Positions 3,679 to 55,872 of a stretch of DNA of 64,000 bases are shown in pieces (within the stretch, counting starts at the first letter, position 1; the number at the start of each line of letters is the position of its first letter). Under the pieces are notes generated by a model. The model searched no databases. It saw nothing but the letters and a program-made list of their open reading frames with translations, and had not been told where the DNA came from. Source of the DNA: a virus. The stretch lies in the IMG/VR virus record IMGVR_UViG_3300027739_000009, positions 7,635 through 71,634 of that record; one strand, 5' to 3'. The position numbers and the translations under genes are program-made.

Positions 3679-4156
3679 ATTTCTTGAGCCAGAGAGCTAT
3701 CTCTTTCTCTCGCCTGTTGATCAGGCCTTCGACTATCCTGCCATTGTCCCTAACCCATCTCCGCATCTGGGCCGGGATCTCTTCATAGAGACCGAGGTTC
3801 AGCTTCTTGAGAAGGGTTGACCCAGCAAACCCTGCTTTCCCAGTACCGATATTGAATACGAAACTGACCAGGGCGTCAAATTGGTTTTGTGTGAGAGGAA
3901 CATTGACCAAGTCATTGATTGCCTTGACAGCGACCCAGGAGTCCTGTTTGGCCAGGGCCTCAATCTGGTTGTCTGTCAGACCGCCAGCATACCTAACCGG
4001 GGCGGAACCGATGATGATCTTACCTGACTTACGCTCAGAATTTGTAAGCAGATGTCCAATACCTATGGTTGGCTCACCTCCGGAGTCAGGATAAACATTA
4101 CTGTCACGACCCTCTATCTCTTCGAGGTGTTTGAAATAGGCTTTACTCACGTTCAT
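3677..4156 (-). CDS. Endolysin, GH24 (phage lysozyme/muramidase)
   Basis: EIEG...YPDSGGEPTIGIGH (E-x8-D-x5-T triad), LTQNQFDALVSFVFNIG, GLINRREKE; start at MNVSK. Confidence 0.92.
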   Translation of the reverse strand: MNVSKAYFKHLEEIEGRDSNVYPDSGGEPTIGIGHLLTNSERKSGKIIIGSAPVRYAGGLTDNQIEALAKQDSWVAVKAINDLVNVPLTQNQFDALVSFVFNIGTGKAGFAGSTLLKKLNLGLYEEIPAQMRRWVRDNGRIVEGLINRREKEIALWLKK

Positions 4157-4164
4157 TTTTTCCT

Positions 4165-4596
4165 TCATGGTGCTATTAGAACCTCCTTGCCTCCGCTTGG
4201 GAGTATGCTTGATCCGCCGAACCGGCAAACGCCTTCCTCTACATAGGCCGCCCTGAACTTCCACATGCCGTCGACGACACATTGATCGTGGAGGAACCGA
4301 TCGGCAAGAGCCTTACATTTAGCTGGGAGATGACCTTCCCTGATAAGCTGGTACAGGCCGTCGTGCCCGAATGCACCTCTCATAAACGACTTGGTATCAA
4401 CAGAAGGCCCAGACGGGCCGTCAGAGGCATAACCTCTGGCCAGGGTGAGCTGGCCAAAGGTGTCCAGGCGGATCCAATCAGTCTGGATATTGAAACCGAT
4501 GATCGGGGTGTAGACCGACATCGGCCGGCGAAGCTGGTACTTGTACCCTTTCGAGTACTCTACATGATCAGAAGTTGGATCTTCCCAGATGTCCAT
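4165..4596 (-). CDS. DUF1353-like protein
   Basis: GYASDGPSGP...MRGAFGHDGLYQL...ADRF pattern typical of DUF1353, which often sits beside phage lysis genes. Confidence 0.65.
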   Translation of the reverse strand: MDIWEDPTSDHVEYSKGYKYQLRRPMSVYTPIIGFNIQTDWIRLDTFGQLTLARGYASDGPSGPSVDTKSFMRGAFGHDGLYQLIREGHLPAKCKALADRFLHDQCVVDGMWKFRAAYVEEGVCRFGGSSILPSGGKEVLIAP

Positions 4597-20312: not shown

Positions 20313-20657
20313 CTATTTTTGATTCTCAGGAGGTGCTGCTGGGTCATTTTTACTCGATTTATTTAAGTAGAAATTGTCCAACATTTGTATGACTTCTATG
20401 AAAAATTCCAAGTCAAGTCGAGCTATTGCCTGATTATAAAGGAATAGCGCCTGGAAATCAATCGGATTTGGTCCGCTCATGTTATAAGTTCTAAAATGAG
20501 ACAGCCTATTGAAGTGCTTGAGGAGGATGTGGTAGCCAGCAGGTACCACTGGCATAGTTTTTAATGCCAGTGGGTCCCTGCCTTGCTGCTTCATCTTGAG
20601 GAGAAATTCGAGGTGTTTACCCCATTCCTCCTCCCATAAGAGGAATGGGAGGATTAC
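20313..20657 (-). CDS. Tail assembly chaperone, frameshifted (GT) C-terminal part
   Basis: The -1 frame is open from the slippery site to 20313: KVILPFLLWEEEWGKHLEFLLKMKQQGRDP...MSGPNPIDF. Confidence 0.8.
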   Translation of the reverse strand, partial: VILPFLLWEEEWGKHLEFLLKMKQQGRDPLALKTMPVVPAGYHILLKHFNRLSHFRTYNMSGPNPIDFQALFLYNQAIARLDLEFFIEVIQMLDNFYLNKSSKNDPAAPPENQK

Positions 20658-21088
20658 TTTTTTACTGCCTCGGCTGATACTTCAGCTACCTCCTGAAAGT
20701 TCTTCAGGTCTTCGGCATAAGCAGCGCATTTCTGACGGAATTCAGGGTATTCCTTGAAAACCTCTGTGCACTTCTCAGGAGAGAACGGCACAACCTTACC
20801 CTTGATGGCAAACTTCTTACCCCAGCCGACGACCACGGTATGAGCCAGAACCTTGGCCATGATGTCATCACCGATGGAGTTCTGGACCGAGACATCAGGG
20901 TTGGCTAGTGCGGACTCAGCAGCACGATACTCTTTGTTGAGCATGGCTCTGTAATCTGCGTTATTGGTGGATTTCTTGAGCTGGATGTACTCTTCCGGAT
21001 CTGATCCGAGAGGCATCTTTGCGCCTTTATTGGCCAGGTCTTTATCGAATCCAAATACAGCGTGAAGATCAAACATAGCTTCCTCCAT
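20654..21088 (-). CDS. Tail assembly chaperone (G)
   Basis: Between tail tube and tape measure; VVVGWGKKF...VPFSPEK; ends GTA AAA AAG TAA. Confidence 0.8.
   Translation of the reverse strand: MEEAMFDLHAVFGFDKDLANKGAKMPLGSDPEEYIQLKKSTNNADYRAMLNKEYRAAESALANPDVSVQNSIGDDIMAKVLAHTVVVGWGKKFAIKGKVVPFSPEKCTEVFKEYPEFRQKCAAYAEDLKNFQEVAEVSAEAVKK
20657..20663 (-). other. Programmed -1 ribosomal frameshift heptamer A-AAA-AAG
   Basis: X XXY YYZ slippery sequence immediately before the G stop codon; the -1 frame joins the downstream ORF. Confidence 0.85.
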
Positions 21089-35656: not shown

Positions 35657-36165
35657 ATGGCTATTTTCTCAACCATGCTAGAATGATCTTTCTCCCTGGA
35701 TGTTTATCCACCTCTTTTTTCTGGTAAATAATTACAAGGCTTTATCCCTCGGAATTATCCGCTAAAAGACTGATTTTTTCTTGTTGCTCCCGATAATTGC
35801 ATAATGTTTGCATAGGGTTAAAGATACAACAAGGACGGCTTATCAGTCTAACGTTCAGAACAGAAAAGGCTTTTATATGGCTTTTCTCGACTGATAAAAG
35901 GTTTCCGTTTAGCATGGTTTCAACCATGTAGGATATCGGGTTTTTATAGCGTAATTCAGGCTATATGTACAAGACTTGTAAGGTATTGAGCAAGGCTAGA
36001 AAAAAGATTGTTTCTCTTTACATTGTTGTTTTCCCCTTGGGCATATCGGCCAGCTATATATAGTTGACCAGGTATAAGCTATTTTAATTACCAGGTAATT
36101 AAAAAGGATTTATGAAAGATTTTAATTACCAGTAATTAAAAAAGACTGGCTGAACAAGTTAAGTC

Positions 36166-36222
36166 TTGCCTAAATGTTTCAGGCCTGCCTAAATGTTTCA
36201 GGCTTGCCTAAATGTTTCAGTC
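36166..36222 (+). repeat. Three tandem 19-bp repeats (T/C)TGCCTAAATGTTTCAGGC
   Basis: Units at 36166, 36185 and 36204 with no spacers. Confidence 0.9.
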
Positions 36223-36474
36223 TACCCAAAAATGCCTGACAAACTAGAACAGCGGAGCTATGCTCAAAATCCAGAAAAACGGGTTAAACTGTTTTAATTA
36301 CAGGTAATTAAAAAATGACAGTGGTACAGATGAGTTTGACAGACTCGGAGAGACAAGTGAGGCGTTGATAGGTGTGAACCATGACGAGCTGACGCAAGCT
36401 ACCGCACAGCGGAGTTGCCAAGTATGTGGTCACATCTGAGCCGAAAAGATTTACTGAAGATGCCTAGCAAGCAT

Positions 36475-36540: not shown

Positions 36541-36597
36541 TGATGACGGTAATGATTTCTAATTACCGGTAATTAAAATTCAACAAACGGTGACATT

Positions 36598-41276: not shown

Positions 41277-41277
41277 A

Positions 41278-41475
41278 TTAACCTCTCGGGGTTGAAATAA
41301 GATCTTGGTACTTCACCTTACCCCGAGTCTTTTGAACGATGGTCATCGCATTCTGTAGTGTGATCTCTCCTCGTTCTTGGCATATATTGTATAACACGCC
41401 TCGTTTGAGGCCAATTTTTGCTGCCAGGTCGTCATAAGTTAAGCTGTTGTTCTTACGATATTCTTCTAACTTCAT
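41278..41475 (-). CDS. Cro-like HTH protein
   Basis: MKLEEYRKNNSLTYDDLAAKIGLKRGVLYNIC...GKVKYQDL. Confidence 0.8.
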   Translation of the reverse strand: MKLEEYRKNNSLTYDDLAAKIGLKRGVLYNICQERGEITLQNAMTIVQKTRGKVKYQDLISTPRG

Positions 41476-48876: not shown

Positions 48877-49114
48877 GATAATGAGCCTGCTCGATAAGGT
48901 TGCCAGGAGAAAGGGTAAGCTACGGAAAGACAGGTATTTCATACTCACCACAGTCACTGTCCCTGGAAAGAGGGTATCCATTATCTACGCCACTACTACC
49001 GACAGATATGTGAATACGATCGATATCCTGGAGTCAACAATCACGGGAGTTCTCGAAAGAGACCCTGGCCTCAGATCAAAACAAGTTCTATGGAGCATGA
49101 CCGATGAAACCTGA
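48845..49114 (+). CDS. Array family member 22
   Basis: WCPEI; DPGLRSKQVLWSM. Confidence 0.7.
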   Translation: MAIKEGYWCPEIMSLLDKVARRKGKLRKDRYFILTTVTVPGKRVSIIYATTTDRYVNTIDILESTITGVLERDPGLRSKQVLWSMTDET

Positions 49115-49343
49115 TTATCGAATAGACTTCGAGTTCAATCTAATTGGGGAGGACACTCCACCGAGAGTGGGGCTGTGTCAGAAATGCAGCTACACATTCA
49201 GGTTCGTCTCTGAATACTATCCATTCTGCCCGCTATGCGGCGTCAGGGTCAAGAGAGTGGGTAGACTTGAACCTGGCATTGCACAGTGTAAACAGTGTGG
49301 AGGTGCTCCATGCTACTGCGATGAAATCAAGAAAAGGAGGTAG
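49104..49343 (+). CDS. Cys-rich Zn-finger protein closing the array
   Basis: CQKC...CPLC...CKQC...CYC. Confidence 0.6.
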   Translation: MKPDYRIDFEFNLIGEDTPPRVGLCQKCSYTFRFVSEYYPFCPLCGVRVKRVGRLEPGIAQCKQCGGAPCYCDEIKKRR

Positions 49344-49361
49344 ACAACCAATGGGCGGATA

Positions 49362-49379
49362 TTAATTACTGGTAATTAA
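49362..49379. promoter_or_regulatory. Operator-like palindrome TTAATTAC-TG-GTAATTAA
   Basis: Same motif as the 36.1-36.6 kb sites. Confidence 0.7.
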
Positions 49380-49459
49380 AATTTGATCTTGTGCTCCTGC
49401 TTCAAACCAAACCATTTTCGCAGCAAAGAAGAGATTGTTAGTTTCCTATCAAATCGAAT

Positions 49460-49606
49460 GGAGGACGATATGACCCAGGCCTGAAAACAGGCGCCTAGAA
49501 GATCCGGCCATCTGTCGGCTGGATCTTCACTCGTGGCCCGCTTCCGAAGAAAGTGGGCCTCGTAGTTGTGCTGAGCTCGTCGGGAGCCGGCGAAATTACG
49601 AGGAGG
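49460..49606 (+). ncRNA. Structured RNA leader: 4-codon uORF plus four stacked hairpins
   Basis: Stems at 49479-92, 49498-528, 49535-59 and 49559-602, several with G-U pairs; the last overlaps the GAGGAGG RBS. Confidence 0.55.
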
Positions 49607-49613
49607 ATAGAAT

Positions 49614-50423
49614 ATGACAGAGGAACCGATCGATGTAGTTGAGACTTTGATACTTACCCTGCTCGACGCAGACAGGGCTAAGACTCAAGAAAACCTTAGG
49701 TTTGATAACGGCAGGAGAGGCGGTGGCCCAAGAAGGATGGAAGACCAGGGAAAGTTTCTCCACTTTGAGAGGATGTATCCGGAGTCGATGTTCACTTATG
49801 AGTTGGGAGAAGACGGGCCAGGTAGATTGTTTGCTACAAACCACGAATATCTTCTCTACCACCCGAAAGAGGTTTATAAAGACCAGGCTGAAATCTGTGT
49901 TTTTATAGGACCTGAAAATGTAGTTAAATGGTTCGGTGTCAGAAAGTTAAATCGTGCACCAAAGGGGGCTGTACCACTGGGAAAAGTTGATGCCTGGTAT
50001 GAGTCTCATACTGAAGTATTTAGTGCCGACCTACGCCCTATTTACCAGAAGAGGCTACTTGCTTTTGATGCGCTGGGAAGGGAGGTCCTTGTAAAAATGC
50101 GTGGGCAAATAGTAGCCCATGCAGACGGATTTGGTACTCTCTTCGCGTCCATAATTGAGGACGCTATAAGAAAAGATGTCATGCTTGCCTCTTTGTCAGA
50201 TGGGCTTGAGGTAAAATTCCCAGTACCTTTGGACTCATACAAAGAGCTGTTCATAATTCGTGATGGCCCACTTACCCAGGCCCAGAAGAAGAGGGCTATT
50301 GTCCATTGGGTCAGAAAGCATAAAAGAGTAACTGATACCTCAACCACTGAGGTTAAAAAACACACCAGAGGAGTTGAGGAGTTCTCCATAGGGACATTCA
50401 AGGTAAAGCTGACTCCAAATTAA
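49614..50423 (+). CDS. Hypothetical protein with C-terminal HWVRKH motif
   Basis: 269-aa ORF, strong RBS. Confidence 0.65.
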   Translation: MTEEPIDVVETLILTLLDADRAKTQENLRFDNGRRGGGPRRMEDQGKFLHFERMYPESMFTYELGEDGPGRLFATNHEYLLYHPKEVYKDQAEICVFIGPENVVKWFGVRKLNRAPKGAVPLGKVDAWYESHTEVFSADLRPIYQKRLLAFDALGREVLVKMRGQIVAHADGFGTLFASIIEDAIRKDVMLASLSDGLEVKFPVPLDSYKELFIIRDGPLTQAQKKRAIVHWVRKHKRVTDTSTTEVKKHTRGVEEFSIGTFKVKLTPN

Positions 50424-54647: not shown

Positions 54648-55307
54648 ATGACAGAAATACCGGTACCGAAGAAAGAAGCGGTTAAAAAGACATCAGACTC
54701 ATCGTTGGCCAAGACACTAAAGGCCATAATCGGAGGACTGGTGATTGCCGCTGTTATCATCATGGTGGTTGAAACCTCCGTCCAAAAGGTGGAGCCCAAG
54801 GATCACCTTGCTCAGGAGGTCAAGATCGATCCGGAAATTAATATCCTGGCCCAGTACATGAAGGCCAGGAACTCTAAAATGCCGGTAGAGCTGGCAGAGA
54901 TGATGGCCCAGCTCATTATATCGGTTGCCAAGGCAGAAGGATTGCCTGTGGAGCTACTTGTGGGGATGATCGAGTCAGAGTCCAGGTTCGATCCTTTCTC
55001 CGTCTCAGGGGTGGGTGCTGCTGGCCTGATGCAGATCCTGCTTGAGGACGGAGTAGTCATTGATGACAACCAGAAGTTCGATATCAAATACAACTTGGAG
55101 AAGGGCTGCGAGATCCTGCACTCCAAGTTGGAGAAGCTGGATGGCCACTTGCAGAAGTCCCTGGCCGCCTATTCAGGAAATGCAGAGGGGTATGCTGACC
55201 GGGTCTATACCGGCGTCGGCCGCTACACCCTCTACCGAAGCAGAAAGAACGACTCAAAAATTCTAATCGTAAAAGGAGACACGAATGAGACTGACAAACG
55301 CAATTAA
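54648..55307 (+). CDS. Membrane-anchored lytic transglycosylase (SLT/GH23)
   Basis: TM IIGGLVIAAVIIMVV; MIESESRFDP (catalytic Glu), SGVGAAGLMQI, NLEKGC, LAAYSG. Confidence 0.9.
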   Translation: MTEIPVPKKEAVKKTSDSSLAKTLKAIIGGLVIAAVIIMVVETSVQKVEPKDHLAQEVKIDPEINILAQYMKARNSKMPVELAEMMAQLIISVAKAEGLPVELLVGMIESESRFDPFSVSGVGAAGLMQILLEDGVVIDDNQKFDIKYNLEKGCEILHSKLEKLDGHLQKSLAAYSGNAEGYADRVYTGVGRYTLYRSRKNDSKILIVKGDTNETDKRN

Positions 55308-55872
55308 AGAGGCAATTGTAGCCCACGTTTTGCAAGATGCATTTGGAGATAGGAAGTCCCAGCTTATCAGAAGGAAGGTGAGATTCGCCAACGATTTCTG
55401 GTGGGAGCTTTACAACAAACATGAGAAAGCAATGAAAAGTTTACCTAAGGCTGCCTTCCGGTATGTGTCAGAGATAAATGGATATTGCGGTGGGAAGTAC
55501 TTCCACAGCTGGAGTTTATCTGAATCAGGAGACGTCAGTCTTCCTGAGTACCATCACGACGACCGAATCAACAAACTCGCAACTGACCACCCGCTTACCA
55601 GGGAGTTTGAGGAAATCGGCAGAGTCAGCGACAAGCTGGATGCCGAGAGGAAGGAGTTGAAACAAGAGATCAACTCCATCCTCAACGCATGTTCCACTGA
55701 CAAAAAGCTCCTTGCTATCTGGCCGGAGGGCGAGAAGTGGATCACTGCTCATTGTAAACCTGATTTCGCCCCGGTCCCGATGGTGAGTGTGAACCGGTTG
55801 AACGAAAAACTGTGTGGGTTGATTGGCCCTGCCTCACCCACCTGCCCTGAGCAAAGGAAAGATGCCGAGTAA
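55285..55872 (+). CDS. Nmad5-like (nucleotide-modification-associated domain 5) protein
   Basis: MRLTNAIKEAI...LNACSTDKKLLAIWPE motif. Confidence 0.65.
   Translation: MRLTNAIKEAIVAHVLQDAFGDRKSQLIRRKVRFANDFWWELYNKHEKAMKSLPKAAFRYVSEINGYCGGKYFHSWSLSESGDVSLPEYHHDDRINKLATDHPLTREFEEIGRVSDKLDAERKELKQEINSILNACSTDKKLLAIWPEGEKWITAHCKPDFAPVPMVSVNRLNEKLCGLIGPASPTCPEQRKDAE

Follow-up and report, generated by a model that had tools for sequence, protein, structure and literature searches.

A strand-specific four-hairpin leader in front of a 269-aa gene of a tailed phage without close relatives

The early and late mRNAs of phage T7 are cut at intercistronic RNase III hairpins, while Bacillus phage SP82 and the cryIIIA STAB-SD supply stabilisers at the 5' end of a message. 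To our knowledge, very few antitermination or decoy RNAs have been described, and none from phages like the one analysed here. In T4-type phages, shuffling of gene cassettes has been described at the hairpins of PeSL elements (Arbiol et al. 2010, PMC2839356). Here we analyse a structured leader found in a 64-kb window, by which we mean the whole stretch of DNA under study, and compare it with these systems.

The leader and the palindrome in front of it

A 73-kb IMG/VR virus record contains the window, which derives from a tailed phage. This phage has no close relative, its large terminase being at most 25-32% identical to those of GenBank phages or IMG/VR entries, and the closest terminase found among GenBank phages and in IMG/VR was only 32% identical. 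The leader lies in a 270-nt gap (49344-49613), the largest clean intergenic gap of a rightward gene block, which is flanked upstream by a 79-aa zinc-ribbon-like ORF and downstream by a 269-aa gene. The gap and its surroundings comprise the following features.

49341..49368, plus strand: candidate sigma-70-like promoter TAGACA-N16-TAATTA, putative and read by eye
49362..49382, no strand: palindromic operator-type site TTAATTAC-TGG-GTAATTAA, one of five copies in the genome
49383..49459, plus strand: A/U-rich, weakly structured 5' part of the leader, mean pair probability 0.46
49460..49484, plus strand: first GGAGG (49460-49464) and the four-codon frame MTQA-stop (49470-49484)
49479..49492, plus strand: hairpin H1, GCCTG-AAAA-CAGGC, with a 5-bp stem and an AAAA loop, pair probability about 0.8
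49498..49528, plus strand: hairpin H2, with a 12-bp stem (49498-49509 with 49517-49528), one G-U pair and a 7-nt loop, pair probability 1.0
49535..49559, plus strand: hairpin H3, with a 9-bp stem (49535-49543 with 49551-49559), one G-U pair and a 7-nt loop, pair probability about 0.95
49560..49601, plus strand: hairpin H4, irregular, 17 bp (8+5+4 bp), ending at the ribosome-binding site
49600..49616, plus strand: GAGGAGG ribosome-binding site (49600-49606) and ATG (49614) of the 269-aa gene, the GGAGG core lying outside H4
49614..50423, plus strand: the 269-aa gene, first after the leader, with no Pfam or PHROG match

Every element named in the original prediction, that is, the GGAGG, the MTQA-stop frame and the four hairpins, was present, and the coordinates agreed within 1 nt. 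Its placement of the block behind an operator held to the extent that the palindrome at 49362-49382 is real as a repeat and that the leader lies in the non-coding gap downstream of it. When the 270-nt gap was searched against the window by short-word BLAST, only this palindrome recurred: copies that are identical or one base off lie at 36119-36139, 36560-36580 and 36294-36313, and a half-site at 36081-36094. Since the palindrome is common to this 36-kb regulatory region, the leader probably heads a transcription unit. The -10-like hexamer of the candidate promoter (49341..49368) sits within the palindrome, and a sequence similar to that promoter, TTGACC-N15-TAATTA, precedes the palindrome at 36085. 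Against a transcription unit beginning here, the promoter assignment is weak, since a scan of 49000-50000 for sigma-70 consensus promoters was silent, calling none and not reporting TAGACA-N16-TAATTA.

Further observations concern the surroundings of the leader and of the palindrome copies. Neither the 79-aa upstream gene nor a 138-aa downstream gene had relatives in IMG/VR, and a tRNA and tmRNA search gave no hit. The rightward block also encodes a protein with nucleotide modification associated domain 5 (Nmad5; window 55285-55872) and an SLT-domain transglycosylase (54648-55307). Between palindrome copies, at window 36166-36222, three tandem 19-bp direct repeats with the consensus TGCCTAAATGTTTCAGGCY, set in an AT-rich stretch, look like replication-origin iterons or the binding array of a second regulator. 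A 66-aa ORF with a typical Cro/CI-type helix-turn-helix (window 41277-41474, minus strand) lies directly upstream of a 921-aa DUF5906 gene, and its product is a candidate binder of the TAATTAC-N2-3-GTAATTA palindromes.

A stable, strand-specific fold before an exposed ribosome-binding site

Positions 49479-49601 fold into four independent hairpins, H1 to H4. The minimum free energy (MFE) of the sense strand was -69.7 kcal/mol, compared with -52.1 +/- 4.05 kcal/mol for 200 dinucleotide shuffles (z -4.35), not one of which folded as well as the native sequence. The antisense strand reached -56.0 kcal/mol (z -2.26), and H4 was absent from its fold. The original prediction had taken the G-U pairs as a sign of selection on RNA, and the strand asymmetry supported this, in that all five of them (one in H2, one in H3 and three in H4) exist only on the sense strand and become A-C mismatches on the antisense strand, in keeping with the two z scores. 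H4 has a 1x1 internal loop and a bulged A in addition to its G-U pairs. In the context of a 326-nt transcript, the arms of H2, H3 and H4 paired with a mean probability of 0.95-1.0 and those of H1 with about 0.8, and the centroid of a 297-nt fold retained all four hairpins. In a scan of both strands with sliding 150-nt windows, in which MFE was regressed on GC, the leader ranked 14th of 5110 windows, or about sixth among the distinct loci of the 64 kb; the loci outranking it include the operator and iteron region at 36 kb and a palindrome cluster at 34.2 kb. We conclude that the four-hairpin leader is real, strand-specific and far beyond chance.

The top locus of the window by GC-corrected MFE was 20501-20675 (z -4.3 on the plus strand and -3.2 on the minus strand), where three adjacent hairpins lie between a 2007-aa gene and the next leftward gene.

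Folding with DNA parameters gave the same hairpins and the same strand asymmetry (z -3.94 versus -2.29), as would also suit an element acting as single-stranded DNA, such as a priming or single-strand initiation signal or a recombination site. However, the hairpins occupy the sense strand directly before a ribosome-binding site and are not repeated elsewhere in the genome, and a candidate origin, rich in iterons and palindromes, is located in another region (36.0-36.6 kb). We regard a single-stranded DNA element as extremely improbable.

The proposal that the 3' arm of H4 covers the start of the ribosome-binding site of the 269-aa gene was correct for the first GA of GAGGAGG, which is paired in that arm (49594-49601), but the GGAGG core (49602-49606) lies outside the hairpin. 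Its bases were unpaired with a probability of 0.33-0.46 each, and no single partner exceeded 0.36. With only GA held in H4, the leader does not qualify as a Shine-Dalgarno-sequestering riboregulator or an RNA thermometer. A long-range pairing of CUCCU (49392-49396) with the GGAGG of the gene was present in the MFE structure, but had a probability of 0.17 and was rejected. Nor does the leader have the makeup of a leader-peptide attenuator, as it lacks a terminator and its four hairpins coexist in both the MFE and the centroid structure at 0.8-1.0. We found no intrinsic terminator in 49000-50000, and no competing fold either in the ensemble or in longer context. Because the hairpins are mutually compatible, a terminator is lacking and the ribosome-binding site is exposed, the leader does not look like a switch.

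The predicted micro-ORF (ATG ACC CAG GCC TGA) was found at its site, but its GGAGG-N5-ATG start is no better than chance. The sense strand carries 127 GGAGG, because of which a few chance pairs of Shine-Dalgarno and ATG are expected; of its 23 GGAGG-N4-9-ATG sites, 20 mark real gene starts and three do not, and besides that of the micro-ORF, one such chance pair occurs inside a gene at 49299. The frame itself forms the last codons of a longer one, which is read in phase from a TTG (33 codons, 49383-49484) and lacks a ribosome-binding site. Two further ideas about this part of the leader were rejected. If the hairpin block had been inserted together with a duplicated translation start, the gene start should resemble the micro-ORF region, yet it ranked only 46th of 260 gene starts in similarity; and a Rho-utilisation site fails on a C/G ratio of 1.5, which is unexceptional, being only in the 9th percentile of the window.

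Control through the micro-ORF would mean that ribosomes loading or stalling on MTQA-stop open H1 and thereby alter Rho access or downstream folding. The good spacing of its GGAGG, the stop codon inside H1, the large share of such motifs that are real gene starts and the C-rich, G-poor run upstream (about 49392-49424) agree with this mechanism. However, the roughly 100 non-start GGAGG on the strand make a chance Shine-Dalgarno-ATG pair expected, a ribosome that has arrived at the stop codon would extend no further than the foot of H2, and the 12 bp of H2 have no rival among alternative pairings. The C/G ratio is in a low percentile, moreover, and a terminator is missing. Such control is therefore very improbable.

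A new cis-regulator, an antitermination element or a small RNA had been offered as possible identities of the block; the evidence fits a structured RNA leader, but it does not decide among the three. The original prediction could match the block to no riboswitch or ribozyme consensus, and in Rfam 15, likewise, no family reached its gathering threshold anywhere in the window. At E up to 10, the region 49200-49800 gave only four eukaryotic snoRNA or lncRNA matches, which are chance matches at 12-17 bits against thresholds of 52-100.

The place of the leader directly downstream of a probable promoter and operator matches that of nut and put sites, and its stable stem-loops carry no U-tract, both of which suit a cis-acting antitermination RNA, either put-like (as in HK022) and acting on RNA polymerase, or with H1 serving as a boxB-like site for an N-like protein. 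We take H1, with its 5-bp GC stem and A-rich loop, to resemble lambda boxB, and a UGCUC-containing run at 49390 is presumably boxA-like. The copies of the operator elsewhere speak against this, as neither H1 nor any other hairpin has a second copy behind them; the search for another H1 within the window was negative, the sole near match (41398-41411) lying inside the Cro-like coding frame. A lambda-type nut site was rejected, there being no second boxB-like hairpin in non-coding sequence, and the boxA-like run is 75 nt from H1 and not about 8 nt as in lambda nut. With no Rfam family matching at any threshold in addition, antitermination is decidedly unlikely.

A processed trans-acting small RNA or decoy, like the P1 c4 or P4 CI RNA, with phage, host or defence targets, would account for a compact, very stable and strand-specific multi-hairpin RNA in an early region without coding potential. 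Yet the block lacks a promoter-terminator pair of its own, its antisense matches across the genome do not exceed 11-12 nt, which is chance level, and it has no match in Rfam, the C4 family included. We consider a small RNA improbable.

Orthologues of the 269-aa gene and the hairpins around them

No homologue of the leader was found by blastn against 50,697 phage records, and the exact H2 pattern had no match in IMG/VR. Orthologues of the 269-aa gene, 35-47% identical, were found as four database proteins and in ten metagenome loci, four viral loci and the prophage of one Rhodocyclaceae metagenome-assembled genome (MAG), the closest of them (P0002-P0005) being 40-47% identical to the 269-aa protein. 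The original prediction had looked to the sequences upstream of these orthologues for covarying homologues of the leader; nothing there could be aligned to its hairpins. At two loci, L004 and L015, the orthologue directly follows its neighbour gene and has no leader. A homology of H3 and H4 to the small second hairpin of L006, L007 and L009 was rejected, as the MAFFT alignment was unconvincing. Since the orthologues do not conserve the leader, this sequence comparison suggests that it is not a conserved, dedicated regulator of the 269-aa gene family.

The 269-aa protein had no match in Pfam, PHROGs or a PDB sequence-profile search. Its AlphaFold2 model, computed from 16 sequences, had a mean pLDDT of 61; its beta-rich core, spanning roughly residues 84-186, was modelled with confidence. 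With this model, Foldseek found nothing in the PDB at E below 0.001, the wide VIA-align search gave no fold match (best Z 4.0), and the ESM Atlas provided no usable lead for the protein.

Most of the orthologues are flanked on both sides by hairpins of another family, CCUAACG...GGGUUAGG. These hairpins are irregular and 56-120 nt long, and they combine an invariant base helix, CCUAAC/GUUAGG, with a variable upper stem. Their first six bases (CCT AAC) code for the conserved C-terminal Pro-Asn of the orthologue. Across 55 kb of the relatives' loci, a covariance model, R1, built from five copies had 42 matches, of which 39 lie on the gene-sense strand, and the 64-kb window, searched with E values up to 1, gave not a single match; the exact CCUAACG...GGGUUAGG pattern is likewise missing from the window. 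In the alignment of the 42 copies, which was fitted to the model, 94.5% of cells pair and 14 of the 19 pairs show double changes. The same model-fitted alignment had a covariation score of 0.391, compared with 0.121 after shuffling and no more than 0.06 when the partners were slid.

All orthologues end in ...L-T-P-N, and in the relatives the two codons for Pro-Asn double as the 5' arm of the hairpin that follows the gene. The gene in the window keeps the T-P-N (ACT CCA AAT, 50410-50423) and has no hairpin there; its last codons are CCA AAT TAA, and 13 nt on, the next gene begins.

The copies of the relatives' hairpin include L007:2882-2957, L008:889-948 and L014:2922-2985, with 39 more in L004-L014, and they occur at nearly every junction of an accessory-gene operon. 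In L014 they occupy consecutive junctions (2519-2583, 2922-2985, 3788-3858 and 4299-4363), the distance from hairpin to the end or start of the flanking gene being 2-45 nt, unless the two overlap, by 14 nt at most. Of 80 further IMG/VR loci, at least 30 contain the family, which reaches eight copies in a single locus and has no Rfam match. In the Rhodocyclaceae MAG, its members are clustered in a few contigs and are not chromosome-wide. This widespread family, absent from Rfam and set between the genes of accessory-gene operons in relatives of a Rhodocyclaceae prophage, is a by-product of our analysis more notable than the leader, and of wider use.

A gene shared by L007 (2464-2913) and L014 (3881-4312), with 96.5% identity at the protein level, precedes the orthologue in the former and follows it in the latter, and the remaining neighbours of the orthologue in these two loci are unrelated. 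Because this gene has swapped sides, the comparison points to a shuffling of gene cassettes at the hairpin junctions of the relatives. The relatives, too, carry a hairpin a few nucleotides ahead of the ribosome-binding site, both at the orthologue and at neighbouring genes, which makes this placement a recurrent design around the 269-aa gene, although the sequence family differs.

Since the orthologue's cassette is shuffled in the relatives, the leader junction may be a recombination seam, and the block could have no dedicated function, being the scar of a cassette exchange or a decayed remnant that is GC-rich and self-complementary by chance. Its uniqueness in the genome, its lack of conservation upstream of any orthologue, and the behaviour of the 269-aa gene in relatives as a shuffled cassette bounded by hairpins would all agree with such an origin. 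However, without selection it is unlikely that four adjacent hairpins would reach so low a z score and that all five G-U pairs would favour the transcribed strand. Phage genomes, moreover, seldom retain 150 nt of idle DNA, and the block resembles neither the hairpins of the relatives nor the start region of the gene behind it. On balance we hold a functionless scar to be unlikely.

A possible role in message processing and comparison with described systems

The reading we favour, tentatively and as a possibility somewhat short of probable, is that of a constitutive protective or processing leader of an operator-controlled operon. Positions 49460-49613 would then be the structured 3' two-thirds of an untranslated leader of about 240 nt, or of an intercistronic spacer, belonging to a rightward operon that starts with the 269-aa gene just downstream of the repeated palindrome, with transcription presumably beginning near 49375. 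The hairpins would act constitutively and after transcription, blocking exonucleolytic or RNase E-type decay as well as Rho entry across a long untranslated RNA. H4 and the 12-bp H2 may offer a site for cutting by a double-strand RNase of the RNase III type, and such a cut would leave a mature message with a hairpin cap directly before its exposed ribosome-binding site, as happens at the intercistronic T7 sites and with the SP82 stabiliser. The upstream GGAGG with its four-codon frame may, moreover, park a ribosome as a 5' stabiliser, in the manner of the STAB-SD. We infer an effect of the leader on message processing and stability; its geometry is that of a processing site or stabiliser, because the hairpins abut the translation start without masking the ribosome-binding site. 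Against processing stands the uniqueness of the element in the genome, whereas T7-type sites and the hairpins of the relatives recur at many junctions, and against protection the fact that four hairpins exceed what simple protection needs. If the leader is a processing or stabilising module, it represents an ordinary solution in a lineage without cultured or sequenced relatives, and it would chiefly aid the annotation of transcription units there.

It is rather unlikely that the block is a new kind of cis-acting RNA from this freshwater lineage, independent of protein or dependent on a phage factor, which would head an operator-controlled operon and work, for example, put-like on RNA polymerase or as an anti-defence decoy. 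A true antitermination or decoy RNA would matter more than a processing module, since such RNAs are scarce.

Several described systems share parts of this architecture. The stem-loops of HK022 put and lambda nut form in nascent leader RNA shortly after an early promoter under operator control, as is probable here, and H1 is comparable to lambda boxB in size and in its A-rich loop. Unlike put and nut, the leader has neither a second site behind the other operators nor a boxA at the right distance. PeSLs (PMC2839356) and the relatives' CCUAACG...GGGUUAGG hairpins bound small accessory cassettes, and the orthologue is so flanked in the relatives; however, the hairpins of the window are unrepeated and are not recognised by R1, the covariance model built on the relatives, and PeSLs consist of a promoter and a terminating stem-loop. 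With the cryIIIA STAB-SD and the lambda bar minigenes, the leader shares a strong Shine-Dalgarno sequence that is not followed by a real gene, although its motif is within chance expectation for this genome.

The closest likeness in form is to the RNase III sites of T7 (R0.3, R0.5 and R1.1, among others) and the 5' stabilisers that RNase III generates in SP82. These, too, are irregular sense-strand hairpins of about 15-20 bp with internal loops, placed in an untranslated spacer just before a ribosome-binding site and without a U-tract. H4, which precedes a cistron, corresponds to them in form, being irregular, about two helical turns long and interrupted by an internal loop, and H2 contributes 12 bp. 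The T7 sites differ in that they recur and share sequence, whereas the four hairpins of the leader are unlike one another and occur only here in the genome, short-word BLAST having found no related sites at other junctions of the window. Though uncatalogued, the element is, in kind, an ordinary structured phage leader.
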